A DNA stretch of 64,000 nucleotides from a virus (lineage: Duplodnaviria; Heunggongvirae; Uroviricota; Caudoviricetes). The stretch lies in IMG/VR virus record IMGVR_UViG_2541047873_000001; one strand, 5' to 3'. Below are positions 9,101 to 50,938 of the stretch, piece after piece. The notes beneath the pieces are model-generated. The model had not been told where the DNA came from and did no database searches. It saw nothing but the letters and a program-made list of their open reading frames with translations. The translations under genes and the position numbers were made by a program. The stretch's first letter is position 1. Each line of letters begins with the position of its first letter.

Positions 9101-9183
9101 AGGCGACTAACTCTGTATTAAACAATGACGGCGTGCTGGAATTTTTCTTGGGATGTATGAAGGAGTTGCAAAATGAAGTATAG
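6142..9183 (+). CDS. Large DdrB-like protein
   Basis: 1013-aa ORF after a short hairpin (6051-6076); size and position fit P1 DdrB; no catalytic motif recognised. Confidence 0.45.
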   Translation: MNKSVTSALSEAADINSVIALVSSLERRETRQGRSSYVVTSKGAEVKTAFKVVDASSLIISNNLDGTINPAFPEELQPRDRTRLSSKLQVNRIASNLRPAQLTDSGMSSHGAPIVGPDNVVESGNGRSMGIWRAYEQGQADEYRQYLIDHAKEFGLNPDDISQMSMPVLVRERLTDVDRAQFARDSNISDLQEMAASEKAYADAQFLTESVMALFNPSDDGNLLARSNDAFIRAFLREIGDTATAGLLTADGRPTKQLIDRIQNAIFAKAYKDERLVRLVAEEPDPEMRNILTALNTAASDFAQMQSLSGDVHHDTVTGLVDGIEQLNGLDKQAIAALQEAINLVREAKDNGQAVEEVIAQRGLFGDSTPEAEALALFIVANNRSAKRMGAAFKKLAQKINDELIHQQQALGDMFGGGDVDLRSILSAVSDEIEAEYGEGKGLNFAMFESVSGDVEPYISKLIADATSVEDLIRIVKASEKIKESAKKIKRNVFLELGFYIRNVTVNEIKAWAKRYGYSNAVLTTMLLSYQRSNFYANALRDAIEKGDEAPSLADERNIDCDIETFCNMSEEGVPAEQFIRVLHNAAKHIPDDFSIDELRNGCLVWLGNYLKSPASIAEKTALRFRKEMNKAGSAEEMVRIIQNTLKLFKKSLHNINDIMAAGRKITASVGVSSELTAEEIADAYIETLVRLKEIVELAEHSSYYGIKERVDFTIEQINKVRSNKEKLTDYLAEVLHQNDHGIGYDLKKMLVFNLDIPEDLQAELYEIASLTRGQKAYPNALENVVHKKVRAAFDMILESSNVSHDQSKEWSRGIAISDEAEQLSGHDNETFSRKAYSIRETIEKAYIISGGTLSTLKNINHKNNVRAFASRNGNITIDANSDHERVLWHEIGHHIEHSNPHLLERAKAFIKSKTNGKVSYHNIGSRGSAEYLVRTDLSHGYMSKIYMENTVSSVSGRFISKPPALSNCRATEIFSMALQMYADPEQATNSVLNNDGVLEFFLGCMKELQNEV

Positions 9184-16320: not shown

Positions 16321-19300
16321 TTGAGGGGGCTTCCTTTGGACAAAATAATTGATTCAATTAGCCAGGCCACCAGCATTGGGGCGCTGATTGAAATTGTTAG
16401 TCGGTTGCATAAACCGCGAGCTGTAGTGACCTTTGGCGTTAAGAAAGTCGATGGCGTCAGTATTCAGAAAACACGCCGGACAGCAAACAACGCCGCAGTA
16501 GATCTTCTTAATTCCCTTCCGCCCGGCTTCGATGGAGCGAAATTAACTGACGAACAGCGTCAGATTCTTGCCGGGTATACCGGTGAAGGCGGCCTGACAG
16601 ATGGTGAGGGCAGCCAATACGAATACTATACGCCACAGTTTATGGCAGAAGGTATATGGGATCTCTTCGGCGACTACGGTATTGATAGCGGTCACGTACT
16701 GGAACCGTCAGCAGGCACAGGTATTTTCCAGGAGACAAAACGGCAGGGCATGATAATGACCAGCGCCGAACTGTCTCCGATCTCCGGTCGAATAAACCAG
16801 CTTTTGCACCCGGAAGATGATGTGAATATCGGGGCGTTTGAGGCGCTGGCGGCGAAAGATGCAATGTATGACCACGCAGTTGGTAACGTACCGTTTGGCG
16901 AAGGGCGTTCCGGCGTCGCCGGGCTTGATCCGGCATATGCAAACGAGAAGAACGTTGGCAATTATTTTGTGCTGCGCACGATCGACAAGGTTAAGCCTGG
17001 TGGGCTAATTGTATTGGTGGTGCCGAATGGCATGACCGATGGTACGAAATACAAAAAATTGCGCGATAAAGTCAGCCGTAAAGCGGAATTTTTGGGCGCG
17101 CATCGTATGCCTTCTGGTACGTTCAGCGAATCCGGTACAGATACCGTGGTGGACGTATGGGTATTGCGTAAACACCCGGAAACCTTCCTGGAGATGATCC
17201 CCGACACGGATGATGCAACGCTCAAATCGGCAAACGTCCTTTGGGATACCTTCCTCAAAGGGAAATGGTTTACAACCGAAGGGAAGCGATTTGTTTACGG
17301 CGACATGGAACGCACCAGCTTCCGCAATACCCTGGTGGTGAAAAAGGACGGTCGTGTATCCAATGAGTCGATGAAAACCGCGTTATCACGCCGCTTTGAA
17401 AGCCGTATTAATTGGGATTTGCTCGGAGTAACTACCCAGGCATGGCAGGGCGCAAAAGTAGGGGATAAGCGTCTTGTAGGCGGTATCTGGCATGAGTTTG
17501 ATGGCCTGAAATGGGTTAAGGACACGACAACCAAATCCTCCGCGCTTGATGTAAGTCGATATGGTGTTTCGACGTTTGGCGATCTGCAGATCGCGTTCCA
17601 GTCAACAAACGGGATTCTGGCTTTGTCATGGGACCAGATATCGGCGATCGCGTCCGACTATCCATCGGTTGTCAGTGATGAAGTGGCAGCAATGATTCGC
17701 TTTGCTGGCAAACAGCGAGAAAAAGACAGGGAGCGCGTTATGCGCGGTGCGTTGATAGGGCAGTTGATCAACAAGGCACTTGATTTGCGTAACCTGGGGG
17801 TGAACGTTGATGACAAACTGGCAGATGCATCCCGCCTGGCGGCAGCAGAAGTTGCGAAGTATGGACCACCGCACGCGATTAAGCTGAATGGGCTTGCTGA
17901 AGCTGGCGCTAAAAACTGGATGACGTTCACTGGCAATGTGAAACAGGATGGTTCCACTTCTGACCTTCTGGCAGGGCGACTTGATGTAACGGATGGTGCT
18001 GCCGGTATTGACTTTACACGTCCGGAACAAGTGATAGCACATCTTTTCAGTGATGTAGCCCTTAATCCTATAACGCTGGGCGACTTTCGTGAGGCGTTTG
18101 CTGGTGAACTGCCAGAGGACGACGACGCGGCCCTTGAATACCTGGCGAAATTTGATGATATCGCTATTGATGGGTATGGCTGCCTGCTGCCGATGGACCG
18201 CGCCACCAGCGGCGATATTGTAACCAAAACAGCATTGCTGGTGGGCTGGCGTGATGCATCAACAGGTGAGCAGAAAGCGAACTTTGAGCGTCAGTTGGCG
18301 AAAATCGAAGAGAAACGCATTTTCACGCCACTAAATAAAGTCACCGTTAATCTGAACGCCCGCTGGCTGGATCGCCGCTTGATAAAAGAGTTCCTGGCAG
18401 AGCAGGGCTATGACGAGTTTAAGTACACTGAACCTGATCTGAAGGTCGTCGATGGCATTCTGGTATCTCCGGACGATTACGAAGGTAAGGACGGGGTATT
18501 TACCGGCTATCAGCTACGAACCGTAAACGGCAAAAACGGGAATGAGTTCAAGAAGGCCAACAATAAAGACGGCTTCCTGAACCAGTTAGAAAACTACCTG
18601 AACGGTGTTAAACCGCGTGGGCAGAACGCTAACGAGTACCTGGATAAAATTGCTCAACTGGAAGTTAGCTTTAACGACTGGTTACGCACCCACCCGCAGG
18701 CGGATCAGATAGCCCGTGACTATAACGACGCATTCAATGGCTTCATTCCGTTCACGCACTCTAACGCACCGCTTGGCCTGGAAGGGATTAGTGGAAAGCG
18801 CATTCCTCTGACTTATCAGAATGAAGAAGTTCGTCGCTTATCAGAAGATGGGCGCGGCATCATGGGATTTGGCACCGGGCTGGGTAAAACCACGACCGCG
18901 CTTGCGCTTGAGGCGTATAACTTCGAAACAGGTCGTACTAAACGCACGTGTATTGTTGTTCCGAAGGCGGTTTATCAGAACTGGTATCACGAGGCACAGA
19001 GCTTCTACAGTGCTGATGCCTTCGCCAATATGATGTTTATCGGTCTGGATGAAGTTCGTGATGACAGCGGAAATATTCTGACCGCTCCGGTGCTTGATGA
19101 AAATGGCGAACCCCGCCTCGACAGTAACGGGCAGCCTCTTACCAGAAATGTTGTGAAAGAGTCCGCCAGCGCCGTTATCGTTCAGCGCATGAACATGATC
19201 CCGTCGTCAAATTGGCGAACGGTCATCATGACAAAAGAACAATTCGCGTCTATCCCGCTACGAGAAAAAACCATCGAGGAGAACTCACAGCAAGCTGTCT

Positions 19301-22300
19301 TTAATGCTGTGGAAATGGGGCGTCTTGACCTGGCGTCTGGTAAACACCGTGATGCGCAGAAGAAGAACAAGATTAAGGATCAGGCCGCGAATACCGGTAC
19401 AACGAAGAAGCAGAATATCCCGTACTTTGAGGATATGAACTTCGATAGCGTGATAGCCGACGAGGGGCATAACTACCGCAACTCCTTTAATGCCGGGCGT
19501 GAAGCGGGACAACTGGCATATTTGCCTAACCCGGCAGTATCCAAGATGGCCCGCGACATGGCTGTAAAAGCTGCGTACATGATGAAACGCAACAACGGGC
19601 GTGGTGTAGTCATGCTGACGGCAACACCGCTGGTGAACAGTCCGATTGATGCCTTCAACATGCTGTCTACTGTCATTCCGCAGGAAGAGTGGATGCGCAT
19701 GGGCATCATTACGCCTGATGATTTCGTTCGTGTGTTTGGTAAAACAGCCACAGTTCAGGTCCAGAAAATTTCCGGGGAAGTGGAAGAGAAGCAGGGGCTG
19801 GTTGGCTTCCAGAACCTTGATGGCCTGCGTGGCATTTTCCATCGCTGGACTACTCTGAAGACTGCTGCGGACGTCGGGGCGACGGTTAAAATCCCTGATA
19901 TTGTCGAGAATACCTTGCAGATCCCGATGACAGGGGAGCAGGAGGCTGCTTATGAAGAGCTTCGTAAGCGTGCACAGGAGTTAAGTAGTAAAGATGCGCT
20001 GACGGTTGATGAAAACGGGCATATCACAAACGAAAAACCGGATGATTTCATCTTCTCCATCATCCGCGACATGGATAAGGTTGCTATAGATCCGGATCTG
20101 TATGCCAGTGCGATTACATTCCAGTTCCCCGTTGAGCTTGCAGACAAGGTAAAAGCTATTGCTGATGCCCTGCCAAAAGTAGCTGGCGGTAAAGTGGCAG
20201 ATGATGCAGACGAGGCCGAAGAAGACGGCGCTGGTGGGCTGGTTAGTACGCGCACCAGTAAGGTAGTGAAGACCACCTTTAGTGAACATCCGGCGCATGT
20301 TGAAATACGTGCCAGCATTGAACTGGAAGCTGAAATACTGAAGGCCATTGCTGCCGCCGGGATTGATATGCAGCAGGTATCACACCCAATCCCGCCGAAG
20401 TATGCCGCGCTGATCGAAAACCTTCGTGAAGGTCTGAAGAACGGTAAACAAATTGTCTTCATTGATGAAAAAGCCCAGCACCAGAAGCTGCGCCGTATTA
20501 TCGCCAGTGCACTGCAAATGCCGGAGCAGGAGATAGGCATTATCAATGCGACGACCGTTAGCCAGGCTGGCGGCATCAAGCTGAAGAAGGTGAATAAGCC
20601 GACTGAACCTACTCCGAATAAAAACGGTGAATACAAAGAAGGGGCATGGGAAACCTACTACAGCAAACTTGCCCAATATGAGGATTATCTCTCAGCTAAA
20701 AATGATGCTGGCCTTGAGGGTATGGAAGGCATTGCCGCCGACTATAACGAAGGGCGCACGCGCATAATTATCTGTAACAAGAAGGCTGAAGTAGGTATTA
20801 ACCTGCATATCGGGACAACCGATATCCACCACCTGACACTACCCTGGACACCAGCCAGTATCGACCAACGAAATGGGCGCGGTGCGCGCGTAGGTTCACC
20901 GCAAGAGAAGGTCAATGTTCACTACTATTGTGGCAAAGGCACATTCGACGACTTCCGTCTGGATACGCTGAAACGTAAGAAAGACTGGATCAAGATGGTG
21001 ATGACCTCCGACATGTCAGAGATCGCCAATGGTGATGCGGATGATGCTGATGAACGCGCCATTATGCTGGCGGCAAACCCGGAAGAACGCCGCGCAATCA
21101 TGGCTCGCCAGGCGCAAGAGCGTGAAGAACGTCTGAAACTGAAAGCACAGCGCGAGGCCAACAATGCTCTCGATATCTACCTGAAAGCGGCAAACGCCGC
21201 TGGAAAAGATATCGGCATGATGGAGACAGAACTGAAAAGCGCGATGGAACAGATAGAGTATTACCAGCGAAATCTTGACGACCTGATAAAAGCGGGTACG
21301 AACAGGAATGGGCAAAAATTCGCGCTTGAGCAGTTGAGTAGCTACAGAAAACGTGCGCGGGTGCTGCGGTTTGCGATCACCAGGGCAAAAGACGCGGATA
21401 CCATAATGAAACGCTCTCGTGGTGATGTGGAGCGCGCTATTAAGTCTGGTGTGCTGGATATCAGTATCGATGTTATTCAGAACCCACAGGAATATATGCG
21501 CACTGACAAGAATATCCTGTTGCATAAAGGTAGTTATTACCGTGCAGTCATTGATGATCGCGAAACAACAGCGATTGTCCGGGTGGAAAAAATTGACGGT
21601 GAAAAAGCACAATACCTCTGCCGTATCGCCTGGCTGGATAGAGCAAGTCGTTACGCTCGATCACCGGGGTCAATCGTTACATTGCCGTTTGACTCTGTGA
21701 TTGAAGCGGTAACTTTTGAAGAGGGGGTAGCTGAATCGCGCGCAACGGCTGCGCGTGGTGTTCAGTGCCACCAGCTATCAACAATACTTACTCGCGATCA
21801 GTTCTATGATGCTATTCGCAATGGGGTAATGAATGTTATTGCTGGTAAACCTGGTAATGCATGGGGCGGTGGGTCAGCTATTAAATACTGGGCATATCGT
21901 ACAGATGATGGTCAGATCGCGCTGTCATCGGCCTATGATGGCGTGATAGGCCAAAAAATCGGGCGAGCATCGGATATAGCACCTGAACGATGGATATATC
22001 CAGATGGCAACGATGAGGCGCTGAAGCGTGAAGTGGCAAAAATACAAGCCAGTGATAACCCGCTGAATATCGTGGACGGCGAGGGATTCCTCCAGGCATT
22101 GTATGGGTATGATTACATCCAGGGAATGCAGGCATGGGGCGCACAGGCAACGATGGATGATGTTGTCCAGGAGTTCGAAAACTGGATGGCTGGGCGTGGT
22201 CTGTCAGGTCGTTCGCTTAATAAAGTCACTTCTGAAGATATTCTTAGCTTGTTCCGCAAACCGTCCGGAGAAGGTCTGGAATCATTCTGGAGGACCGTGC

Positions 22301-23172
22301 TGGCATACCGTTTATTCAAGGGCAGAATGAAAGCCTTTAGCAATATCGATGATATTGAACGGATGTTTAATCAGGTCAAGATCGCCAAAATTAAGACGAA
22401 GATCGAAAAAACACGTTCTGCGCTGGTGGCCTGGCGCGATGCATTGTTTGAGCAATATAAATCACTCAGTGATGCAGATGGATGGGCGGCATTGGAACAG
22501 TTGGCGAATAATGGGGTAGATGGAGCGAAACTCGCCATAGTCCAGGCTGATAACCCCCTGGAATCACCGGCAGCACAGTGGATTAAGGTGGGGGCTGTCA
22601 TCAATGCATTTGATGAAAAACACATTAGTAAGGACGATTTTGCTGATGCTGTTTCTGTTAATCGCCTGGTAGAAATGGCTACCCGCCGCGCCCGTGAGTT
22701 GAAAGACGGTGACTATGTGAATGAGTTGCCGGATGCGCTCAAATCAGCAACGTGGCAAGACTATGTATCGCTGAAAAACGGCGGGGCAACCGAATCAGAG
22801 ATCGCGGAAAGGCTTGAACAGGCTGAAAGCAAAAGAGAAGAGCAGGCGGCAGTGGCTGAAGCCAGAGCTGATGAAGCGGCGAATGATGACTATATCATTG
22901 TGGTTAATGATAAGCCGATTCGCGCTAAGGCGCGTGTTCGCGGGCGCTGGTGGAGTGTCAGCGAGGACGTCGGTGCGGTTTATCTCATTGCCGACCAACC
23001 TGGTTCCTCGACAATACGGAACGCCAAAGACGCGATTAAGAAGATTGGCGGGCGTTTCTGGAATTTTGAAGCAAACCCGGTTGCTGATGTGAACTTTGAC
23101 CGTCCTGCATGGATGGTATCTACGCGTTACTCGGTAGATGAACTGCGTAAAATAATCGCCGATGCGGCCTAA
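16321..23172 (+). CDS. darB: DarB-type antirestriction protein (N6-adenine methyltransferase plus DExH helicase)
   Basis: 2283 aa; SAM motif EPSAGTGIF and NPPF-like GNVPFG; Walker A GFGTGLGKTTTA and DEGHNYRN box. Start is uncertain (TTG at 16321 or 16336). Confidence 0.8.
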   Translation: MRGLPLDKIIDSISQATSIGALIEIVSRLHKPRAVVTFGVKKVDGVSIQKTRRTANNAAVDLLNSLPPGFDGAKLTDEQRQILAGYTGEGGLTDGEGSQYEYYTPQFMAEGIWDLFGDYGIDSGHVLEPSAGTGIFQETKRQGMIMTSAELSPISGRINQLLHPEDDVNIGAFEALAAKDAMYDHAVGNVPFGEGRSGVAGLDPAYANEKNVGNYFVLRTIDKVKPGGLIVLVVPNGMTDGTKYKKLRDKVSRKAEFLGAHRMPSGTFSESGTDTVVDVWVLRKHPETFLEMIPDTDDATLKSANVLWDTFLKGKWFTTEGKRFVYGDMERTSFRNTLVVKKDGRVSNESMKTALSRRFESRINWDLLGVTTQAWQGAKVGDKRLVGGIWHEFDGLKWVKDTTTKSSALDVSRYGVSTFGDLQIAFQSTNGILALSWDQISAIASDYPSVVSDEVAAMIRFAGKQREKDRERVMRGALIGQLINKALDLRNLGVNVDDKLADASRLAAAEVAKYGPPHAIKLNGLAEAGAKNWMTFTGNVKQDGSTSDLLAGRLDVTDGAAGIDFTRPEQVIAHLFSDVALNPITLGDFREAFAGELPEDDDAALEYLAKFDDIAIDGYGCLLPMDRATSGDIVTKTALLVGWRDASTGEQKANFERQLAKIEEKRIFTPLNKVTVNLNARWLDRRLIKEFLAEQGYDEFKYTEPDLKVVDGILVSPDDYEGKDGVFTGYQLRTVNGKNGNEFKKANNKDGFLNQLENYLNGVKPRGQNANEYLDKIAQLEVSFNDWLRTHPQADQIARDYNDAFNGFIPFTHSNAPLGLEGISGKRIPLTYQNEEVRRLSEDGRGIMGFGTGLGKTTTALALEAYNFETGRTKRTCIVVPKAVYQNWYHEAQSFYSADAFANMMFIGLDEVRDDSGNILTAPVLDENGEPRLDSNGQPLTRNVVKESASAVIVQRMNMIPSSNWRTVIMTKEQFASIPLREKTIEENSQQAVFNAVEMGRLDLASGKHRDAQKKNKIKDQAANTGTTKKQNIPYFEDMNFDSVIADEGHNYRNSFNAGREAGQLAYLPNPAVSKMARDMAVKAAYMMKRNNGRGVVMLTATPLVNSPIDAFNMLSTVIPQEEWMRMGIITPDDFVRVFGKTATVQVQKISGEVEEKQGLVGFQNLDGLRGIFHRWTTLKTAADVGATVKIPDIVENTLQIPMTGEQEAAYEELRKRAQELSSKDALTVDENGHITNEKPDDFIFSIIRDMDKVAIDPDLYASAITFQFPVELADKVKAIADALPKVAGGKVADDADEAEEDGAGGLVSTRTSKVVKTTFSEHPAHVEIRASIELEAEILKAIAAAGIDMQQVSHPIPPKYAALIENLREGLKNGKQIVFIDEKAQHQKLRRIIASALQMPEQEIGIINATTVSQAGGIKLKKVNKPTEPTPNKNGEYKEGAWETYYSKLAQYEDYLSAKNDAGLEGMEGIAADYNEGRTRIIICNKKAEVGINLHIGTTDIHHLTLPWTPASIDQRNGRGARVGSPQEKVNVHYYCGKGTFDDFRLDTLKRKKDWIKMVMTSDMSEIANGDADDADERAIMLAANPEERRAIMARQAQEREERLKLKAQREANNALDIYLKAANAAGKDIGMMETELKSAMEQIEYYQRNLDDLIKAGTNRNGQKFALEQLSSYRKRARVLRFAITRAKDADTIMKRSRGDVERAIKSGVLDISIDVIQNPQEYMRTDKNILLHKGSYYRAVIDDRETTAIVRVEKIDGEKAQYLCRIAWLDRASRYARSPGSIVTLPFDSVIEAVTFEEGVAESRATAARGVQCHQLSTILTRDQFYDAIRNGVMNVIAGKPGNAWGGGSAIKYWAYRTDDGQIALSSAYDGVIGQKIGRASDIAPERWIYPDGNDEALKREVAKIQASDNPLNIVDGEGFLQALYGYDYIQGMQAWGAQATMDDVVQEFENWMAGRGLSGRSLNKVTSEDILSLFRKPSGEGLESFWRTVLAYRLFKGRMKAFSNIDDIERMFNQVKIAKIKTKIEKTRSALVAWRDALFEQYKSLSDADGWAALEQLANNGVDGAKLAIVQADNPLESPAAQWIKVGAVINAFDEKHISKDDFADAVSVNRLVEMATRRARELKDGDYVNELPDALKSATWQDYVSLKNGGATESEIAERLEQAESKREEQAAVAEARADEAANDDYIIVVNDKPIRAKARVRGRWWSVSEDVGAVYLIADQPGSSTIRNAKDAIKKIGGRFWNFEANPVADVNFDRPAWMVSTRYSVDELRKIIADAA

Positions 23173-23208: not shown

Positions 23209-23643
23209 ATGACGACATTAATTGACACTGTAAAACCGACGGAATCCTACCTTGAGGACATTTTGCCGCAGGCGCTCAATGGCAGGAGTGAAGAGGCGTT
23301 TCTGGATGCATATCTGGATGGCATGGCGGAAAGGCTGAAAAGAGATCCACAGCTTTATCATCTTTATGGGCCGTGGTGGCCTGCGCTTAAAACGTTATTG
23401 CTGGAGCGTGGCGACATATCATTTGGACAAGTTGTAGATAGTGATGTGGCAGAAATCTACAAAATGAGTCGCCCGGCGCTTACGGTTTTAGCCGGGCATC
23501 TGTATTCGAGCGATCGCCTGGAAAATGACGCGGTATACAATCCCGTTCATGCTCTGGAAGTCGCGCCTTATGCTGATGATACAGAGCCATACGTATACAC
23601 AAGTTACGACGAGTCTATAGAGAAATATCGAATCGTGGGGTAG
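23209..23643 (+). CDS. Hypothetical protein
   Basis: 144 aa with RBS, directly after darB. Confidence 0.4.
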   Translation: MTTLIDTVKPTESYLEDILPQALNGRSEEAFLDAYLDGMAERLKRDPQLYHLYGPWWPALKTLLLERGDISFGQVVDSDVAEIYKMSRPALTVLAGHLYSSDRLENDAVYNPVHALEVAPYADDTEPYVYTSYDESIEKYRIVG

Positions 23644-24754: not shown

Positions 24755-25062
24755 GCAGAAAACACCACGTAAATCTGACGTTTGCTGATGACGCCGGAAG
24801 AACCAGAAGCATAACCATGAAAGTTGCTTCCAGGAAAGTAACCGCGCCACTTATACGAGAGGCCGTAAGTGAACTTGATATGAGTGAGAATGCAGCTCTG
24901 TTATCGGTAAGCTGGCTGGGGAAAATGACGGATCAGGAATACTCGGATGGTATACCCCACGGTGAGCGGCAGATAGTAAAGCGCGCGTTTAGAATTTCAG
25001 AGGTAGTTGTCGTACTGATAGCTTTGATTTATATGGCATACATGCTACTCCAACACGTCTAA
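24736..25062 (+). CDS. Hypothetical protein with C-terminal TM anchor
   Basis: 108 aa; C-terminal VVVLIALIYMAYMLL hydrophobic helix. Confidence 0.35.
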   Translation: MGVCSLSRKHHVNLTFADDAGRTRSITMKVASRKVTAPLIREAVSELDMSENAALLSVSWLGKMTDQEYSDGIPHGERQIVKRAFRISEVVVVLIALIYMAYMLLQHV

Positions 25063-25073
25063 ACGGTCATAAA

Positions 25074-25097
25074 CCCGCCAGTTGGCGGGTTTTTTTG
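25074..25097 (+). terminator. Rho-independent terminator
   Basis: cccgccagttggcggg hairpin plus a T8 run. Confidence 0.7.
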
Positions 25098-25135
25098 TTG
25101 CCTGAGTCTTTTTATTGAAATTGCATACTAATAAA

Positions 25136-25153
25136 ATATGTTAGAAAACTAAT
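25136..25153. promoter_or_regulatory. Operator-like site (ATGTTAGAAAACT)
   Basis: Motif copy ~20 bp upstream of the 402-aa gene. Confidence 0.45.
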
Positions 25154-25172
25154 TTCAAGAAAGGGAACAAAC

Positions 25173-26381
25173 ATGAGTCAGCAAGTAGAATCATCAAGCC
25201 TGGAGATCATCTCAACCGCAATTGAAACGCTGCGGACACAAATCGCGCTTATACAGAAACGAAATCCGGGCGATGACCTGTCAAAGCGACTGCATGAGAG
25301 CGTCATTGCCACTACAGATAACCTGGTGGCGGAAATCAACCAGCTCCTTGATGATGGGGCAGTTGATTACAATAAGCTGGTGGATCAGTTTGAGGAATAT
25401 CAGCAAGCCGTTAATGATGGCTTGATCCGTTTTTCTCAAGTCACTGGTGTATCAGCGACAGTTGAAAGCCTGGGGGATGCAGTTAATCAATTTGCCGCGA
25501 ATATGCGTAATGAGATCGGCAATCTGGAGGCGCGTCTTGAGCAGGCAAATACACTGCGCAAATCTGCTGAAGTCGATTTGAGTCGTTACAAAAAAGACTA
25601 TCCGCCAAGCCTGACAAAACGACTGGATGTTGCGGAGAAAGATAACCGCACGCTGAAAAGAGAGCGTCGGGAACTAAAAGAGCGTTTAACCAAGCTAAAT
25701 CAGCAATGCGTTGAGTATCAAGGCGAACTCGTCACACTGCGTAAAAAGTTAGCAGCGGCGCAGAGCATTATTGAAACATTGAAACGAGAGTGCTCAGAGC
25801 TTGGTCATGATCTGAATCGCGCCTGTGGCATGGGGCAAAGGCCAGAGACATTCCCGCTAATGTATGACGGAAGAGAAGCTATTGCCTATATCCATGAGTT
25901 TCCGCATGGTCTGGTCGCGGAGACTGGGCAACGTGGCGAAGCGTTGCTGACGGCAAATTACCATCAGCAAATCAGAACCAGCCGCCTGCTGACGATGGAT
26001 GTGATCCCGTCAGTATGGGGAACGCCGCTTTACTACCGAATTCCTGGCTTCGAAACTGACTGGAATACCGACATAGACGAATGTCTGGCAGATAAAATTA
26101 TGGCGTACCTTGAAACGGATTTTCCACGCTTGCATCGCCGGATTATGGACTCTAAGGATGCACCGATCGACGAATTGAAAATGCGTCCAGAGACGTTGGA
26201 GGCAATCAAGCAGACTGAGTTTGATACAGTGTTCAGTGTGGCCTGCATTCCAAGCAGCTTTCATGAAAGCATTCCGTTCATGCAGGGCGATCGCCGTCAG
26301 GAAATAATTGATGCTTGCCGGGTATGGGCGAACGAGTGGGATAAGAAGAACGGTGGAGTTGAAAATCTTTACGGGAAATAA
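25173..26381 (+). CDS. Coiled-coil protein of unknown function, bracketed by operator sites
   Basis: 402 aa; long coiled coil (residues ~100-210) and a globular C-terminus; good RBS. Confidence 0.5.
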   Translation: MSQQVESSSLEIISTAIETLRTQIALIQKRNPGDDLSKRLHESVIATTDNLVAEINQLLDDGAVDYNKLVDQFEEYQQAVNDGLIRFSQVTGVSATVESLGDAVNQFAANMRNEIGNLEARLEQANTLRKSAEVDLSRYKKDYPPSLTKRLDVAEKDNRTLKRERRELKERLTKLNQQCVEYQGELVTLRKKLAAAQSIIETLKRECSELGHDLNRACGMGQRPETFPLMYDGREAIAYIHEFPHGLVAETGQRGEALLTANYHQQIRTSRLLTMDVIPSVWGTPLYYRIPGFETDWNTDIDECLADKIMAYLETDFPRLHRRIMDSKDAPIDELKMRPETLEAIKQTEFDTVFSVACIPSSFHESIPFMQGDRRQEIIDACRVWANEWDKKNGGVENLYGK

Positions 26382-26415
26382 TGTGTTAGAAAATTAAAAT
26401 TGTTTTTCTAACATA
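26382..26415. promoter_or_regulatory. Palindromic operator pair
   Basis: tgtgttagaaaattaaaattgtttttctaacata: perfect inverted half-sites gttagaaaa / ttttctaac. Confidence 0.6.
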
Positions 26416-26532
26416 TTGATTATGTAGTTAACTTAACATAGAATTTTTCGTGCTGGTGGGGAGCTTCCCATGTCGCTTGCGGGTTTGATAGTCACTTCAT
26501 TGTCTTTCCCCACCAGCATCAAACAATTTTAA

Positions 26533-26546
26533 GTGTTAGAAAGTAA
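26533..26546. promoter_or_regulatory. Operator-like half-site (GTGTTAGAAAGT)
   Basis: Motif copy 120 bp downstream of the palindromic pair. Confidence 0.4.
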
Positions 26547-27726
26547 ATTTTAAGGTAAGGGAAAGCTCCGGCACCGTGCAAATACATGCCCGGCAGGTTT
26601 AGTGCGTAAAGTGGTTTCAGCGAGAGCATTTTACGGAGTAAACGACAGTGACTTGAGCCACGGAAGGTCTTTTTATGGTGTTCATTGATGATGATCTGGC
26701 AGTGAGTATGTTAAGTGGGCCAGGCTGCATCGGGTCATCATCAGTGCACATCCTCAACGTTAAGGAGGCGCAGAGTTGGGTTTTCCTCTTATTTTGCTGA
26801 CTCTGAGTCTCCTTAACGTTGCGGTAATGCACCTATGCGGATGTGGCCTTGCATTGTGTCTTGAAAGAATGGGGTAAGGCCGGGGATATTCCCAGGGGGA
26901 GGCACCCCCGCTGCAACGAACAGCCATAGACGGCAGTCGAGTGATGAAAACGTGAAAAGACTTTAAACCTCGTTACGGCTGGCGTGGCAAACGCGACAAC
27001 CGGGATAGGACGGTGACGGGCGGAGAGAGAGCCGCTTCAAGATAAAAGCCGACTATGGATTCCTTTCTGCGGGCCTTTGAAAGTGAATCTTGCTCAGGCA
27101 GTCGGCTTTTATGTTGATACGTAGCGATAACCGCGACAGGCGCGGCGGTAAGTATGGCGGGGTTATTCCTTCCCCGTTGAGGACACCGAGTTGCCAGGTT
27201 GACCATACGCCTAAGTGGCAATACCGCGAGTGGGATATTTGCCCACCTTCGGGTGGGTGTTTTTTCAGTGTTTTCGTCATGGTTAGCGACTTTGCGGCGG
27301 TTTAGAACCCGACCATTAAAGTAAATGCAAACGATGATCTGATGATGGTAGCGGCCTAAGAAGCCTGACGCCACGGGGTATGAGTCGTCCCCCGTCAAAA
27401 AATCGACCGCAGAGTGTCCCCGTCTGTGTATTAGGGAACGGGGAGGCATAACAGGCAAGGGCGCTGGTGTGATTAACCAGATGAATGAGAAGGGTCAGGT
27501 CTTTCTGGTCAGCGCCCTTACCTGTTACGTCCCTCCCGCGTAACAGCCATTGGTTAATGGCTTTCTGGGATAATGTCTTGTAACGGGTATATCCCGTCAT
27601 GCTGAAGGCGCTAATCACGCTGGAAGCCAGGGTTATGCATCCCCTGTTACCGAATTGCAGCCAGGGCGCGGTGCGCCGAAAAGCATACGGAGGTGGAAGC
27701 CCTCGCCGGAGACGTACCCGGCAAGT

Positions 27727-27803
27727 GATGGTGTAGCTCAGTAGGATAGAGCAGCAGCCTTCTAAGCTGTCGGTCGGTGGTTCGAATCCACCCACCATCG
27801 CCA
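27727..27803 (+). tRNA. tRNA-Arg (anticodon UCU)
   Basis: Hand-folded cloverleaf: acceptor gatggtg/caccatc, D arm gctc/gagc, anticodon loop cuUCUaa, T loop ggtgg-ttcgaat-ccacc, encoded CCA. Confidence 0.8.
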
Positions 27804-27808
27804 ATTTA

Positions 27809-27895
27809 GGGGAGTTAGTCCGTAGGGGTAGCGGGGTAGACTGTAAATCTACTGTCATTGCGACTCGGATGGTTCGACTCCATCACTCCCCACCA
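27809..27895 (+). tRNA. tRNA-Tyr (anticodon GUA), long variable arm
   Basis: Acceptor ggggagt/actcccc, anticodon arm gtaga-cuGUAaa-tctac, long variable arm, T arm gatgg-ttcgact-ccatc, CCA; resembles E. coli tRNA-Tyr. Confidence 0.7.
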
Positions 27896-27899
27896 AATT

Positions 27900-27975
27900 G
27901 CCGGTTTAGCTCAGTTGGTAGAGCGCCTGCCTTGTAAGCAGGATGTCAGCGGTTCGAGTCCGTTAACCGGCACCA
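27900..27975 (+). tRNA. tRNA-Thr (anticodon UGU)
   Basis: Acceptor gccggtt/aaccggc, D loop agctcagttggtagagc, anticodon arm cctgc-cuUGUaa-gcagg, T loop ttcgagt, CCA. Confidence 0.85.
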
Positions 27976-27983
27976 ACACAACA

Positions 27984-28056
27984 GGTAAGGGTATTTTGCG
28001 ACGTCGGAGATCGCCGAGCTTGGCAGAGGGTTCGAATCCCTACGAAGTACCCTTAC
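27984..28056 (+). other. tRNA-like element or pseudo-tRNA (T arm plus 10-bp terminal stem; no anticodon arm, no CCA)
   Basis: ggtaagggta...tacccttacc terminal helix encloses a gggttcgaatccc T-arm-like hairpin; too short for a complete tRNA. Confidence 0.25.
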
Positions 28057-28163
28057 CGTTGTGATGAATGCACAGGCTGATGTGCCGCAACTACAGTAGT
28101 GCGCGCTTTGCGGGGCTTGCTACAACCCTGTGTCGGAGTTCAGCACCGACCATCACAATCACT

Positions 28164-28250
28164 GGAGAGTAGGGAGCATGGTGCTCAAGCGGTCTTGAAA
28201 ACCGTCCCATTGCGCAAGCGATGATGGTTCGATTCCATTACTCTCCGCCA
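28164..28250 (+). tRNA. tRNA-Ser (anticodon UGA), type II
   Basis: Acceptor ggagagt/actctcc, anticodon arm gcggt-cuUGAaa-accgt as in E. coli tRNA-Ser(UGA), long variable arm, T loop ttcgatt, CCA. Confidence 0.7.
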
Positions 28251-28679
28251 GCGCAACGTTAAGAGTATTTGGCTAATTAAGCGAATGCCGGAAGCAGAAC
28301 CGGATCACCAAATGCGTACAGGCGTCATCGCCGCCCAGTCAGCCAAATGCTCTTACCATTGCGGTGAATGCGGCTAAGCGCACGCGGAACAGTTAAAACA
28401 GTAAAGGTGGTCTTTTTACTGGCGTAACGAGAATCCATAAGTGATCCGGCGTTAATTGTTAACTGGTTAACGTCACCGGGAGGCACCCGGCACCGCAACC
28501 TAACAGCAATGGCGTTTTGTCTTAAAAGGTGGCTGCAAGTGATGGATTTTTGGGCGTTTGCCGATAAAAACCCGGAGTGGACATTATTGTTTCTGCTGGT
28601 GGTTGCATACGGGGTAGAGCAAGCGGCAAAAGCCTTACGCGGTTCTGGCAAAAAGCGTAAGCGTAATTAACAGTAATCT

Positions 28680-28755
28680 GGCCCTTTAGCTCAGTGGTTA
28701 GAGCGGGCGACTCATAATCGCACGGTCACCGGTTCAAGTCCGGTAGGGGCCACCA
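28680..28755 (+). tRNA. tRNA with CAU anticodon, most like tRNA-Ile2 (AUA-decoding); elongator Met not excluded
   Basis: Near-complete resemblance to E. coli ileX-type tRNA as I recall it (GGCCCUUUAGCUCAGUGGUUAGAGC...CUCAUAAUCGC...GGUUCAAGUCC...GGGGCCACCA). Confidence 0.8.
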
Positions 28756-29207
28756 CATTTGGTTGTAACACGGCGTATGGCACATGCGTCGTTAGCGGTC
28801 TGGTGTAGCTGTTAGGTACCTTTTACTAACACTGCATGGGCACACCAGGTAGCCGGAATGTGCAAGCCCCGTTCATAGCGTCGGACTGCGGATTCACCAT
28901 CCTGGCGATTCGGTGTGACAGCCGGAAGAGCACGGCGTACAACAGGAAAAGGCGTTTAATTAGCGTGAGCGCCGTTTCCGTTGTGGTAATTGCGGCTATG
29001 CGCTCGTGACGAAGCCATTTTCATTCACTACGTTCTGATAAGTGTCGTCGCCGGGCGTGGCTAACCTGGCAGGTGGAGGCACCACCGCCACAACTCCTTT
29101 CAATTCATCATATAGCCGCTCAGGCTGTAACCCTTAATTAATACGAAGTTACGACGTCACTACCGGTTCAGCCGGGGGATAGTCGCGCGTGTAAAAAAGG
29201 AGACGTT

Positions 29208-29783
29208 ATGTTAACGGCGAACGATAACGCGTATTTAGAAGATGATCTCGTTTTGAGTGACTTTATAGGGCGACGAGAATGCTGGACGCAAAAGCGCGAG
29301 GAGCTTTATGCAGCGTTAGTTCGTAAAGGCGTCAACATCGAAACCGCACAGAACGGTGATATGACAGTGGTAAGTGTTGGACTGCACGGCGTAAGTGTGT
29401 CAGCAATCAATCATGAGCCGTACATTGCGTTATCCGAGTCGATGGTAAGGTTAGTTAAGTTCCTGAAGTACACAGAAGCGAATAACGTGCTCATCGCCAA
29501 AAAGAACATCCCGTTCTCATCGGCCTTTTACTGGATGATGAAGGGGCTTGATGCCCGGCGAACATCATGGCCTAAAGGGAGCTATATATCGATGCTCCGT
29601 GGCAGTGTTGGTAGCAAAGAAAAGCTCGTCGAATTCCTGCCGGAAGAGGCATTCGATATTGTTGAAGGTTGTGATGTGATGGTTATGCCTCGCCTGGTAA
29701 TGATGAATGGGGATTTACAGGCGCAGACAGACTGGTTTGCAACTGGAGTTGATATTATCGCTACTGACTGGGAGGTTTTTTGA
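29208..29783 (+). CDS. Hypothetical protein with C-terminal DUF2829-like module
   Basis: 191 aa; AAGGAG RBS; C-terminus FYWMMKGLDARRTSW...DIIATDWEVF. Confidence 0.45.
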   Translation: MLTANDNAYLEDDLVLSDFIGRRECWTQKREELYAALVRKGVNIETAQNGDMTVVSVGLHGVSVSAINHEPYIALSESMVRLVKFLKYTEANNVLIAKKNIPFSSAFYWMMKGLDARRTSWPKGSYISMLRGSVGSKEKLVEFLPEEAFDIVEGCDVMVMPRLVMMNGDLQAQTDWFATGVDIIATDWEVF

Positions 29784-30163
29784 TGTACGAGGCTACTAAA
29801 TTACGCACTGAGGATGCGATGCACATTGGTTGGGACATCATCACCTGCAAGATAACATCATGCAAGGCTACACGCACAGACGCCGGACACAAGAGCACAA
29901 TATCAGGTTATGTCGTGATGTCAGTCAGGAGTGTGCGCATACGCTTCAGATGGAAAGCCAGCCAGGTTACATCATCAATGCCGCTTACCGTCGAGCAGGA
30001 TTATTTATGCTTACCCGAAATAGACGGAGCGTTGCTGGTGGGCAATAGTGGTCGAAAAGCCGATTTTGAAGCCAGTCTGAAGATGGCGCAGGCGGTGATC
30101 AACAAACATAAAGGGAAGTGGGAGGCAAAAGTTAAGCATGTTGTTCGTTTATCCCGCTGGTAG
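29780..30163 (+). CDS. Hypothetical protein
   Basis: 127 aa, start overlaps the upstream stop. Confidence 0.35.
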   Translation: MMYEATKLRTEDAMHIGWDIITCKITSCKATRTDAGHKSTISGYVVMSVRSVRIRFRWKASQVTSSMPLTVEQDYLCLPEIDGALLVGNSGRKADFEASLKMAQAVINKHKGKWEAKVKHVVRLSRW

Positions 30164-30194
30164 TGTTAGCAAATTGATATTAATTTTCTAATAC
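30163..30194. promoter_or_regulatory. Bipartite operator upstream of the lpa-like/pac operon
   Basis: gtgttagcaaattgatattaattttctaata inverted half-sites. Confidence 0.5.
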
Positions 30195-30270
30195 ATCATG
30201 TTTTTGACAGTCTTCTCAGTATTAACAAGCTGATTATCATCCCCTCGGTCTTTTTCTATCCGGGGGATAA

Positions 30271-30663
30271 ATGGAGCAAATCAGTAGCGCCGAAATAGCG
30301 GATATCATGATCAGGGCTAACTGCTATCTGACGGTCACCGAAATCACCAGCCGTGCAAAAGCACAATATCCTCACCTTCATGTGTCGCGCGTAAACGTAA
30401 ATAACATCATACGTTTTTTTGTTCGTTCCAGTCGTGCCATTTGCGAAATAGACGACCGCGTATACCCCCGGAAATATTGGTTACATGGCCTGAATGGATA
30501 CCAGTTCAAGGTGCGCGGGCGCACTCCTGAATTCGGTCGGCTGTTGGTGAAAAACACCAACCGAAAGATAGAAGCTCAATTACGAAAGGAGCAGCGTCAG
30601 TTGGTGGCGATGACTAACCAGCTATGGAACGCCGCTGTGAAAAAACGTGAGGCTTCCCTATGA
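30271..30663 (+). CDS. Putative late-gene activator (Lpa-like, positional)
   Basis: 130-aa gene between an operator and pacA, as lpa sits in P1 (from memory); no motif support. Confidence 0.35.
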   Translation: MEQISSAEIADIMIRANCYLTVTEITSRAKAQYPHLHVSRVNVNNIIRFFVRSSRAICEIDDRVYPRKYWLHGLNGYQFKVRGRTPEFGRLLVKNTNRKIEAQLRKEQRQLVAMTNQLWNAAVKKREASL

Positions 30664-32024
30664 CGTTAATTAACTGGGAAGCGCATCGAGCTAAGTTCCT
30701 GGAGTTAAGAGAAGAAACCGGGATCACCATAAAAGAATATTGCGAGCAGCATGACCTCAGCTTTAACACCGCCAGAAAGCATCTCAATATGAAAAAAAAT
30801 GAGGTTAAGGCGAAAGCTAAGGCTGCCGGGAAAAGTACAAAACAGCGCGCAAAAAGCAGCGCCACCGGCTCAAAAAAAGAGCAAAAAAAGGCTGATAAAA
30901 GCACAGAATTTACAAAAACTGACAAATCGTTAGCTGGTGGACGGTTCCGCGCCATGCCGCAAAAACAAAATGCGGATCACAAAGAAAAGCCAAGTAATAA
31001 CAACAAGATACACAAGGATGTGAAGGGATCATTTTGTGATGAAATGGGAGAAATGATCCCTAAAAGCAGCGAAAAAGCCCAACGAAACAAGGGATCATTG
31101 CAAATGATCCCTGACTCATCAGCTCAAAGCGCCACTTTGCCTGCCACCAACGTCGCCCGTGAGATGATGAAGAACGGCGCGACTGAACATTTACGACTTG
31201 CGATACAGATGGCGCAGGAACGAGCAATTCAGTATCAGGCCATCGTTGACCAGGAAGCGGAGCGACTACAGGAAGAGATTGACGCCCTCGGCGATACACA
31301 GCCAGAGGGGATGCACCCAGGGCAGCGTCTTCTCGGCCTAATAAGCGATGCGGCCTACTACATGAATGACTTTATCAGTAGGTTGGCAGCCATCTACCAG
31401 ACCGAGCAGAAGCTACGCCAGGGGGATGAAAAACTTGCGCAGGGCGCGCGTCAGCAGGCATTCAGGGAGGCTGAGGCCAGAGAAAAACTGGCGATTGCCC
31501 GCCTGCAAGCCGAGCAGCGTGGCAAAGAGATTGAGTATCGCATTGGCGCTGACGCACGCGCCGCCAGGGTTATCGCCGCCGCTATACGTATGCGTGAGCG
31601 CGAGGAGCTGGACGATATAGGCGTAGCTGAATATATCGAGCGGCAGGGCGTCAGTGTCCCGGCTATCCTGGCGGCACGAGCGGCAAAAGCGATCTCACTT
31701 CTGGAGCCTCCGGTTTCTGACGTTAACGATGTTGATGATGAGCAACTGGATAAAGAGGCGAAGCAGTTTGCCGAGCAACAAGCTGGACTCCCACAATGGC
31801 TTGCACAACGCCGGGCTGAAGTAGCGAAAATCGTTGATAGGCTTGGGATGGGGGATTACGACCGGAACGGAGAACGTAAAGCCGGTGAATTTGAGGCCAA
31901 TGATGAAGACCTGAATATAGACCCTTCCGCCACGGCTGATATCTACGGTGATTATGACGCGGGGGATACCGGTTTTGATGCTGTAGATGACGAGATTGCG
32001 ATAGACCAGCCGGAGGATGACTAA
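30660..32024 (+). CDS. pacA: Pacase small subunit PacA
   Basis: 454 aa with N-terminal HTH-like region, lysine-rich linker, acidic C-terminus; directly upstream of the large terminase; contains the GATC-hexamer cluster. Confidence 0.6.
   Translation: MTLINWEAHRAKFLELREETGITIKEYCEQHDLSFNTARKHLNMKKNEVKAKAKAAGKSTKQRAKSSATGSKKEQKKADKSTEFTKTDKSLAGGRFRAMPQKQNADHKEKPSNNNKIHKDVKGSFCDEMGEMIPKSSEKAQRNKGSLQMIPDSSAQSATLPATNVAREMMKNGATEHLRLAIQMAQERAIQYQAIVDQEAERLQEEIDALGDTQPEGMHPGQRLLGLISDAAYYMNDFISRLAAIYQTEQKLRQGDEKLAQGARQQAFREAEAREKLAIARLQAEQRGKEIEYRIGADARAARVIAAAIRMREREELDDIGVAEYIERQGVSVPAILAARAAKAISLLEPPVSDVNDVDDEQLDKEAKQFAEQQAGLPQWLAQRRAEVAKIVDRLGMGDYDRNGERKAGEFEANDEDLNIDPSATADIYGDYDAGDTGFDAVDDEIAIDQPEDD
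30970..31112. other. Candidate pac site: cluster of five Dam (GATC) hexamers inside pacA
   Basis: GATC at 30975, 31027, 31055, 31093 and 31106, arranged as GGGATCATT / AATGATCCC inverted units; P1 pac is a hexamer cluster of this kind inside pacA. Confidence 0.5.
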
Positions 32025-45856: not shown

Positions 45857-45888
45857 ATGTTAGAAAATTAAAATCAATATTCTAACAC
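45857..45888. promoter_or_regulatory. Bipartite operator
   Basis: atgttagaaaattaaaatcaatattctaaca inverted half-sites, intergenic. Confidence 0.55.
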
Positions 45889-50904: not shown

Positions 50905-50938
50905 GTGTTAGAAAATCAATTTTGATTTTCTAACACAT
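50905..50938. promoter_or_regulatory. 34-bp palindromic operator between divergent operons
   Basis: tgtgttagaaaatcaa-tt-ttgattttctaacaca: perfect 16-bp inverted repeat. Confidence 0.65.

Follow-up and report, generated by a model that had tools for sequence, protein, structure and literature searches.

The tRNA genes of bacteriophage P1 lie in the ban operon, whose annotated order is the promoter Pban with a bivalent C1 operator, a dicF-like region, trnA (Asn), trnT (Thr), plp/upl/tciABC, trnI (Ile2, anticodon CAU) and ban. D6, P7 and the D6-like plasmid prophages carry the array Asn-Thr-Ser-CAU (statements about P1 and D6 are based here on GenBank annotation). Among temperate coliphages, the Shiga toxin (Stx) phages carry ileZ-argN-argO, tRNAs for AUA and AGA/AGG that are classically regarded as a rare-codon supply; we take these to lie in another genomic context, downstream of Q. 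Four tRNAs were reported in D6-like plasmids (PMC6799933). The virulent phages T6 and T5 have larger clusters (7 to >20 tRNAs) without repressor control, which serve as experimental models for codon supplementation and defence evasion (PMC11555353, PMC12409363, PMC13096335). Here, we analyse a block of five tRNA genes at positions 27,727 to 28,755 of a 64,000-nucleotide (nt) stretch of DNA, IMG/VR virus record IMGVR_UViG_2541047873_000001. "The window" below means this whole stretch.

The element is a P1/D6-type plasmid prophage (phage-plasmid) of E. coli, and its set of five tRNA genes is an informative version of the P1-family tRNA operon, a feature already known. A homologous leader, the slot order, the tciC-CAU unit and a P1/D6-like genome place it in this group. 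As in the P1 ban operon, a putative repressor-controlled promoter and a dicF-like leader are followed by tRNAs, a small tci open reading frame (ORF) and a CAU tRNA; the tRNA-Thr is one base off the commonest P1-type allele, and the CAU tRNA is near-identical. P1 differs in having Asn in slot 1, where the window has Arg, and in its operator sequence. The window adds Tyr and Ser cassettes and lacks tciA/tciB/plp/upl. The tRNA unit of P1 lies between dmt and ban, whereas that of the window lies between pmgS and a Tad2-like gene/lpa/pacAB, as in D6. D6, P7 and the D6-like plasmid prophages share the backbone, the genome position and the Ser(UGA) gene with the window, but they have Asn in place of Arg and no Tyr insert. 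Arg(UCU), Tyr(GUA), Thr(UGU) and a CAU tRNA are also found in the T6 cluster, but there the counterparts of the Arg, Thr and CAU genes share only 60-82% identity with those of the window. The original prediction, made from the letters of the window, had given P1 three tRNAs of a different set; this was correct, the set being Asn, Thr and Ile2.

The 64-kb window is P1-like. With a 2.5-kb query of the tRNA region, the best phage match was D6 (92% identity over 79% of the query), followed by P7, Ro157c2YLVW, RCS47 and P1, and no phage record reached 80% cover. A 100% match to the tRNA region was found in NZ_LR890273.1, an E. coli plasmid of 92.8 kb whose host had been isolated from human blood. 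In total, 1,133 plasmid records matched the region at least in part, and 91 complete E. coli genomes covered at least 80% of it.

We put the probability at roughly 55% that the array serves an early, repressor-controlled supplementation of the host tRNA pool, which would meet codon demand and also replace tRNAs cut by host defences.

tRNA genes and their identity

ARAGORN detected exactly five tRNA genes in the window, all on the + strand. They are listed with their scores against the Rfam tRNA model RF00005 (gathering threshold, 29 bits):

27727-27803, + strand: tRNA-Arg(UCU); ARAGORN tct; RF00005 72.1 bits
27809-27895, + strand: tRNA-Tyr(GUA), optional cassette; ARAGORN gta; RF00005 43.8 bits
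27900-27975, + strand: tRNA-Thr(UGU), allele class A; ARAGORN tgt; RF00005 74.9 bits
28164-28250, + strand: tRNA-Ser(UGA), optional cassette; ARAGORN tga; under the RF00005 gathering score
28680-28755, + strand: tRNA-Ile2-like, anticodon CAU; ARAGORN CAT; RF00005 66.7 bits

A 3′ CCA is encoded in all five genes, and the spacers between them are 5, 4, 188 and 429 nt long. Four of the five (Arg, Thr, CAU and Tyr) pass the curated threshold of RF00005 with E-values from 1e-15 to 5e-7, so these four matches are far beyond chance. The PGAP annotation of the 100%-identical NZ_LR890273.1 has the same five tRNAs (Arg, Tyr, Thr, Ser and Ile), with the CAU gene as tRNA-Ile. The five tRNAs in about 1 kb described by the original prediction were thus recovered by ARAGORN with the same coordinates and anticodons, PGAP agrees, and the finding is real. 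The array is already annotated in RefSeq, on identical E. coli plasmids of about 90 kb, yet no published analysis of it was found in the literature searched. In the record of D6 (locus L002, NC_050154.1; 3490-3643, 4109-4195 and 5181-5256), the CAU tRNA is unannotated, and the three tRNAs that are annotated have the reverse of the strand given by ARAGORN. Two mechanically called ORFs, 27316-27858 (- strand, 180 aa) and 27858-28064 (+ strand, 68 aa), overlap the leader and tRNA genes of the window; they are almost certainly not genes, and PGAP has no coding sequence (CDS) there.

For comparison with the host, we used the K-12 tRNA genes of NC_000913.3. The CAU tRNA is 89% identical to ileX (68/76) and 71% identical to metT (55/77). 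Its acceptor stem, GGCCCUU/AGGGGCC, contains C4:G69 and C5:G68, which are said to be positive determinants for TilS. Its anticodon loop, CUCAUAA, is the same as in ileX, while the top of the anticodon stem has a G27.A43 mismatch where ileX has G.U. Because it has G1-C72, an initiator is ruled out. Judged by these features, the CAU tRNA is Ile2-like, in keeping with the near-identity to the tRNA-Ile2 framework noticed in the original prediction, and it would be expected to receive lysidine and to be charged with isoleucine.

The other four are less similar to their host counterparts: Thr-thrU 80%, Tyr-tyrU 70%, Arg-argU 69% and Ser-serT 64%. The tRNA-Arg has the D-loop AGUAGGAUA (with A20), C35, U36 and G73. 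The tRNA-Thr has G1-C72, C2-G71 and A73, and its anticodon arm, CCUGC-CUUGUAA-GCAGG, carries G39 in contrast to U39 in host thrU. The tRNA-Tyr has A73, a long variable arm, GUCAUUGCGAC, and a 4-nt connector between the acceptor and the D stem; in the tRNA-Ser, the discriminator is G73, the variable arm has 6 bp and a GCAA loop, and the anticodon arm is of the serT type. We take the identity elements of all five tRNAs to agree with the standard E. coli synthetase identity sets.

The Ser(UGA) gene is not canonical. It was not reported by RF00005 at the gathering threshold, and its best Rfam match was the tRNA-Sec model (RF01852) at 44.6 bits, under the threshold of 47. The D6 record remarks on its Ser tRNA 'AA not called by tRNAscan-SE', although ARAGORN and PGAP both call the gene tRNA-Ser. 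An identity as tRNA-Sec was rejected: the anticodon is UGA, which reads the Ser codon UCA, and not UCA; the score is below the threshold; and a T stem of 4-5 bp gives a 12-bp branch, in contrast to the 8/5 branch of tRNA-Sec. The D-arm of the Ser gene is compact, with a 4-bp stem and a 5-nt loop.

Six phage homologues of the Ser gene can be folded into a single cloverleaf in which every pair holds. It consists of an 8-bp acceptor stem, a 2-nt connector, a 4-bp D stem with a 4-6-nt D loop, a 5-bp anticodon stem, a long variable hairpin and a 4-bp T stem. Double-sided changes among the six were found in the D, anticodon, T and acceptor stems, and 99% of the pairs were kept among 12 Ser alleles in P1/D6 relatives. 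This conservation of pairing indicates that the Ser gene is a real, structured tRNA despite its sub-threshold score. The cloverleaf can also be drawn as 7/5 with a 3-nt connector and a G49.U65 pair; as the eighth acceptor pair (A8-U) is invariant, the 8/4 form is not separable from this one.

The (8/4) tRNA-Ser of the allo-tRNA group were found in bacteriophages (Mukai et al. 2017, PMC5389517). If drawn as 8/4, the window Ser and five phage homologues are like them in an 8-bp acceptor stem, a 4-bp T stem, a compact Sec-like D-arm, a long variable arm and a G73/U73 discriminator. Allo-tRNAs typically have a 'long stem and tetraloop' D-arm, whereas the D stem of the window Ser is 4-5 bp. Its anticodon is an ordinary one for Ser and implies no recoding. 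The gene is 100% identical in P7, the copies in rV5-like coliphages have about 90% identity, and phages of Klebsiella and Acinetobacter contain more distant ones. Owing to its unusual shape, several phage records lack the gene or leave it uncalled. In P7 (AF503408.1), the gene is present, unannotated, at 72257-72343.

Codon usage, array composition and tRNA-targeting defences

For codon usage, ORFs were called in the same way in both genomes (ATG start, at least 100 aa, greedy, non-overlapping). The window sample had 64 ORFs with 16,961 codons, and the host sample, from three 50-kb K-12 regions, had 122 ORFs with 41,733 codons. The window/host ratios and their ranks among 61 codons were:

AGG: 5.9, rank 1
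ATA: 5.1, rank 2
AGA: about 3.8, rank 3
CGA: 3.0, rank 4
ACA: 2.85, rank 5
TCA: about 2.4, rank 6
AAG: 2.1, rank 7
AAT: 1.8, rank 8
TAT: 1.33, rank 18
TAC: 0.95, rank 39

The gene-bootstrap confidence intervals for ATA (3.8-7.1), AGA (2.3-6.9), ACA (2.3-3.6) and TCA (1.9-3.0) all exclude 1, and those for TAC and TAT include or nearly include 1. The probability that all four chosen codons fall in the top six is 2.9e-5, with a cut-off that was post hoc; a rank-sum test with Tyr included gave P=0.003. AGA (1.8/1000) and ATA (2.8/1000) were the second and fourth rarest sense codons in the K-12 sample, in line with the description of AGA and AUA by the original prediction as among the rarest enterobacterial codons. 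Its further claim, that the tRNA set is aimed at rare codons, was borne out for Arg, Ile2, Thr and Ser (ranks 3, 2, 5 and 6); it failed for Tyr, and codon usage is much the same across the array types described below. The first slot of relatives holds Asn(GUU), which likewise is not a rare-codon tRNA. A concentration of rare codons in particular genes, for example late genes, was also considered and dropped, as the per-gene table shows them spread broadly over genes.

Related arrays were collected by scanning IMG/VR with two exact patterns, the leader plus the 5′ half of the acceptor stem, and the leader alone. The two scans together gave 127 loci, 89 of them complete, and the arrays were counted in these 89:

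Asn-Thr-CAU: 43/89 loci
Asn-Tyr-Thr-CAU: 11/89 loci
Asn-Thr-Ser-CAU: 11/89 loci
Arg-Tyr-Thr-Ser-CAU (window type): 7/89 loci
Arg-Thr-Ser-CAU: 4/89 loci
Asn-Tyr-Thr-Ser-CAU: 2/89 loci
Arg-Tyr-Thr-CAU: 1/89 loci
Arg-Thr-CAU: 1/89 loci
Degenerate forms: 9/89 loci (no tRNA after the leader, 3; Asn-CAU, 2; Asn-Ser-CAU, 2; CAU only, 1; tRNA-Ile(UAU), 1)

All eight combinations of {Asn or Arg}, with or without Tyr and with or without Ser, were seen. CAU was present in 85 of the loci, Thr in 80, Ser in 26 and Tyr in 21. The Ser gene had 12 alleles in 29 genes, two of the alleles with A73. In one locus (L127, IMGVR_UViG_3300045988_040485; 435-511 of the extracted segment), the leader is followed by an unrelated tRNA-Ile(UAU) that replaces the array. 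From its anticodon, this tRNA would read AUA without lysidine.

Codon usage in the genes flanking the array, analysed in 77 loci, was alike in all array types (per 1000 codons: AGA 5-9, ATA 9-15, ACA 13-17 and TCA 12-16). Codon demand therefore does not explain which tRNAs are carried. The idea that each array is tuned to the codon usage of its own genome was dropped for lack of a clear difference between array types.

The tRNA-Arg gene sits in the slot of the P1/D6 tRNA-Asn. Its nucleotides 1-15 and its last 32 nt are identical to one P1-family tRNA-Asn(GUU) allele (Asn-b), and every difference from this allele is within positions 16-45. In the D-loop, two insertions and one substitution result in the GGAUA/A20 motif. 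Four anticodon-stem pairs are changed (three of them on both strands), as are the anticodon and one base of the variable loop. On this alignment, tRNA-Arg(UCU) is a chimera, in which a new D-loop and anticodon arm appear to have been placed on an Asn acceptor/T-arm chassis. The replaced block would be exactly what ArgRS reads; the anticodon read by AsnRS would have been removed with it, and G73 would suit both enzymes. No phage record matched the Arg gene at >95%, its best full-length match there being a tRNA-Asn (83%). The Arg centre occurs at 95% or more in 68 of 20,395 E. coli records, essentially plasmids of about 90 kb. A donor for this centre was not found, E. coli chromosomal and prophage tRNA-Arg genes being only 82-88% identical to it.

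Variation in tRNA-Thr is concentrated in a similar way. Of the 12 sites at which the window allele, Thr-A, differs from a second class in relatives, Thr-B, 10 lie in positions 26-45; Thr-B has a G27.A43 mismatch and no CNG motif. Hybrid genes with a tRNA-Asn 5′ part and a tRNA-Thr 3′ part were observed in one locus (L132, IMGVR_UViG_2778261301_000006) and in one further allele. These hybrids are deletions that arose by recombination between adjacent tRNA genes, and they show that the conserved D and T boxes do serve as sites of recombination at this locus.

Several host defences cut the host counterparts of tRNAs in these arrays. AriB of PARIS cuts the E. coli tRNAs for lysine (UUU), threonine (UGU) and asparagine (GUU) between positions 40 and 41, beside a U36AAUC motif; U39A alone abolishes the cleavage of tRNA-Lys, and the Lys, Thr and Asn variants of T5 together neutralise PARIS (PMC12409363). 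P2 Old cleaves thrU at CNG motifs of the anticodon stem; variants of phage tRNA-Thr(UGU) give rescue, and an altered CNG motif plus a shortened stem are both required for resistance (PMC12445682). PtuAB of retron-Eco7 and of Septu degrades tRNA-Tyr at the variable arm (PMC11555353, PMC13096335). A T5-type tRNA-Tyr rescues phages from retron-Eco7 in a dosage-dependent manner (PMC11555353), amplified T6 tRNA-Tyr defeats Septu, and T5 tRNA-Tyr was reported to be resistant owing to its variable loop (PMC13096335). In the literature, then, the host counterparts documented as nuclease targets are those of Thr(UGU), a prime target of AriB and P2 Old, and of Tyr, a target of PtuAB.

The window tRNA-Tyr is 89% identical to that of T6, 82% to that of T5 and 70% to tyrU, and its variable arm is identical in T5 and T6; by these identities, it belongs to the T5/T6 phage tRNA-Tyr family. 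Thr-A has U39G within the AriB motif U36AAUC|A41. At the sequence level, the window thus has both marks of T5/T6-type counter-defence, a changed determinant (Thr U39G) and homology to a rescuer (Tyr).

Operon organisation and surroundings

Other features of the operon and its surroundings are as follows:

26383-26547, + strand: putative repressor-controlled promoter region (promoter scan, 15-mer count)
27122-27726, + strand: leader common to P1, P7, D6 and Ro157 (blast blocks, alignment, P1 annotation)
27977-28063, + strand: spacer module 1, a long hairpin ACAACAGG...CCGUUGU, families D3 and D8
28255-28365, + strand: spacer module 2, a long hairpin CGCAACGUUAAGAGUAUUUGGC...GCCAAAUGCUCUUACCAUUGCG, families D3 and D4
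28360-28497, + strand: STnc100-like stretch (RF02076 40.8 bits, under the gathering score of 47)
28539-28670, + strand: small ORF of 43 aa, TciC homologue (P1/D6 alignment; PGAP has a CDS here)
28939-29006, + strand: spacer module 3, with a terminator-like hairpin at 28951-28973 (z -1.7, weak)
3755-5680: DarA homologue
6460-9183: DdrB-like homologue
16321-23172: DarB-like homologue
23209-23643: Ulx-like homologue
29208-29783: Tad2-like protein, 191 aa, with a C-terminal Tad2-like (Thoeris anti-defence) domain (PF11195, E=4e-10)
30163-30194, 45857-45888, 50905-50936 and 62655-62686, among others: further sites of the 15-mer GTGTTAGAAAATTAA

The promoter scan gave a sigma-70-like promoter at 26416-26444 (TTGATT-17-TAGAAT). 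An inverted pair of the 15-mer GTGTTAGAAAATTAA, at 26383-26397 (+) and 26400-26414 (-), adjoins or overlaps this promoter-like site, and a third copy lies at 26533-26547. With up to 3 mismatches, the 15-mer occurs 18 times in the window, against 2.0 expected; it is often found in intergenic regions as inverted pairs 2 nt apart, one such pair being directly before lpa. The P1 C1 operator consensus had no match in the window within 3 mismatches, suggesting that this lineage uses a different operator. By analogy, the 15-mer is probably the operator of a D6-type C1 (immunity) repressor, and the tRNA block would be an early, repressor-controlled unit as in P1.

The window follows the P1 sequence from 27122 on (86%), about 30 nt 3′ of the P1 promoter. 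The sequence 5′ of this point is the window's own, differs from P1 and is common to D6. The counterpart of the P1 dicF-like region is at about 27185-27290, and a conserved hairpin lies directly before the first tRNA gene. Despite the P1 label, Rfam had no DicF match at E<=1 in 25000-32000. Two stretches, about 27131-27450 and 28360-28497, resemble lambdoid-prophage sequences annotated as DicF/dicB regions.

Spacer module 1 encloses a T-arm-like hairpin (AGGG-UUCGAAU-CCCU) and folds with a free energy (dG) of -41.4 kcal/mol (z -4.8; 0/200 shuffles as stable). It is kept in P1 and D6, and P1 annotates plp on its opposite strand. Its resemblance to part of a tRNA suggests that it could be a tRNA remnant, or a mimic for processing or enzyme binding. 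Module 2 folds with dG -43.4 kcal/mol (z -2.75), and the tRNA block probably ends with module 3, ahead of the Tad2-like gene. A common design is seen at 27978-28071, 28255-28371 and 28939-28993, after the Thr, Ser and CAU genes, respectively: ACAACAGG, a long hairpin, and then CCGUUGUGRURAAUGC. The three modules look like cassette boundaries or RNase sites. The TciC-like ORF is directly 5′ of the CAU tRNA, as in P1.

The STnc100-like stretch, similar to stretches in lambdoid phages, has at its 3′ end the hairpin CCGGG-AGGCA-CCCGG. Hairpins with this constant AGGCA loop were seen at 26895-26909, 28476-28490 and 29072-29086, with a partial copy near 27438-27450. Their 5-bp stems covary (GGGGG/CCCCC, CCGGG/CCCGG and GGUGG/CCACC) and are followed by GC(N)CAAC-like sequence. 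Individually, these hairpins are not unusually stable.

On the 5′ side, the neighbouring genes encode DarA, DdrB-like, DarB-like and Ulx-like anti-restriction proteins, a VRR-NUC protein and PmgS. The DarB-like protein has 2283 aa, with SNF2 and N6-methylase parts. With the DarA, DdrB-like, DarB-like and Ulx-like genes, the 25 kb 5′ of the tRNA block is largely anti-defence cargo. On the 3′ side, the Tad2-like gene lies 450 bp from the CAU tRNA (its PGAP name is Tad2-family protein) and is followed by the genes for Lpa and PacA/PacB. D6-like plasmids were reported to have glnS (PMC6799933); it was not among the six large window ORFs checked, the remaining window not having been searched for it.

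Competing explanations for the array

From the observed presence, structure, identity elements, codon statistics, polymorphism and chimerism of the genes, we infer a scheme for their timing, charging, lysidine modification and defence evasion. The five genes would be the tRNA block of an early operon, the counterpart of P1 trnA-trnT-trnI. After infection or induction, the primary transcript would be cut into tRNAs, which would be charged by host ArgRS, TyrRS, ThrRS and SerRS and, once TilS had placed lysidine at C34, by IleRS; they would then join the host pool during phage protein synthesis. Under the first pressure, codon demand, Arg, Ile2, Thr and Ser would read AGA(/AGG), AUA, ACA and UCA, which are 2.4-5 times commoner in the element than in E. 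coli and are read in the host by minor tRNAs. The second pressure, replacement of host tRNAs destroyed by defences, would be a better account of Tyr(GUA) and of Asn(GUU) in relatives and may also explain the Thr(UGU) variants. The array would diversify through recombination between tRNA genes in their conserved D-box and T-box sequences, which would add or remove whole cassettes (Tyr, Ser) and swap anticodon arms on a fixed acceptor/T-arm chassis (Asn to Arg, Thr-A to Thr-B).

Several observations weigh against this supplementation of the host pool under two pressures. On the codon side, the GC content at third codon positions is 0.485 in the element and 0.571 in the host, so that a general effect accounts for some of the codon match; highly expressed genes are among those of the host sample, and the ORF calling is crude. 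AGA, AGG, ATA, ACA and TCA showed no clear difference whether or not a relative has the Arg or Ser tRNA, and the commonest array, Asn-Thr-CAU, lacks both Arg and Ser, suggesting that the benefit may be small. With regard to transcription, a terminator-like hairpin (27240-27259) stands between the promoter-like site and the tRNAs, and the promoter scan gave no promoter-like site nearer to them than 26416-26444. On the defence side, the CUG/CAG motif is still present in Thr-A and its stem has the full 5 bp, so that sensitivity to P2 Old is predicted from the published rules (PMC12445682). Rescue from retron-Eco7 by tRNA-Tyr hinged on dosage (PMC11555353), and Septu also cleaves T6 tRNA-Tyr (PMC13096335). 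The array has no tRNA-Lys(UUU), the main target of PARIS, and no defence nuclease against Arg(UCU), Ser(UGA) or Ile2 was found in the literature searched.

Pure rare-codon compensation, in which Tyr (and Asn in relatives) would be neutral passengers or provide a small general boost, is unlikely. It would account for the strong codon match of four of the five tRNAs, and it gains from the recurrence of the anticodons UCU, CAU, UGU and UGA in T-even phages, T6 having UCU, CAU, UGU and GUA. T4 carries Ser(UGA), and the ileZ-argN-argO genes of Stx phages are a further parallel. However, the Tyr codons are used at 1.33 and 0.95 times the host level and the host tRNA-Tyr is multi-copy, while the over-use of Asn codons is slight (AAT 1.8x, AAC 1.0x). 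Among relatives, codon usage is not followed by array content, and a block replacement confined to anticodon arms is not predicted by codon compensation. Moreover, the Tyr gene is of a family with a demonstrated anti-defence role (PMC11555353, PMC13096335).

It is also doubtful that the array is primarily a counter-defence, replacing tRNAs cut by nucleases of the anticodon arm or variable arm, such as AriB, P2 Old, PtuAB, colicin-type tRNases and others. In such a case, the codon match would arise because defences target the minor tRNAs on which phages depend. Thr(UGU), Asn(GUU) and Tyr(GUA) are indeed published E. coli targets, Thr U39G lies at the AriB determinant, and the variable arm of Tyr is common to T5 and T6. 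The G27.A43 mismatch of Thr-B together with its lack of CNG is the two-factor pattern of P2 Old resistance (PMC12445682). The concentration of variation in anticodon arms and the neighbourhood rich in anti-defence genes would also fit. Against it stand the missing tRNA-Lys, the P2 Old motif kept in Thr-A and the failure to find a known nuclease for Arg(UCU), Ser(UGA) or Ile2(CAU) in the literature searched. The CAU tRNA keeps a host-like anticodon loop and the 31-39 and 30-40 pairs, and all resistance claims are extrapolated from other tRNAs.

A benefit to the lysogen, in which tRNAs expressed from the plasmid prophage would aid the host in translating AT-rich genes gained horizontally, or no current function, the genes being mainly RNA-processing punctuation or recombination scars in a mosaic operon, is very improbable. 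In its favour, the region is a pronounced mosaic that includes tRNA-like remnants and hybrid genes, 3/89 relatives have no tRNA after the leader and Ser is unusually polymorphic. Against it, repression in the lysogen is suggested by the operator-like sites at the promoter, the tRNAs have intact cloverleafs, identity elements and CCA ends, stem changes preserve pairing, and CAU and Thr are kept in 85/89 and 80/89 loci.

A bolder and quite tentative proposal, of low probability, is that the P1/D6 locus is an arms-race cassette-exchange system, with an acceptor/T-arm chassis that stays fixed along with its processing context, anticodon arms swapped through recombination at the D and T boxes, and plug-in, nuclease-evading tRNAs. 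The swapped part may be the arm cut by AriB, Old, PrrC-type and colicin-type nucleases. One swap may have changed identity in place, from Asn(GUU) to Arg(UCU), with the gain of A20, and the T5/T6-type Tyr and the 8/4-type Ser may have been plugged in from virulent phages. If this proposal were true, the array type would predict which tRNA-targeting defences a lineage overcomes.

Phage tRNAs are now being re-read as counter-defence tools and no longer solely as codon adaptors, and most of this work concerns the virulent phages T5 and T4/T6. Among clinical E. coli, Klebsiella and Salmonella, phage-plasmids of the P1/D6 type are frequent. Their small natural polymorphism, with two alternatives for slot 1, two cassettes and two Thr arms, makes them a convenient temperate test system, in which codon supply could be separated from defence evasion by simple deletions and swaps. 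The Asn-to-Arg chimera would be an example of a change in tRNA identity through replacement of the D-loop and anticodon arm alone.

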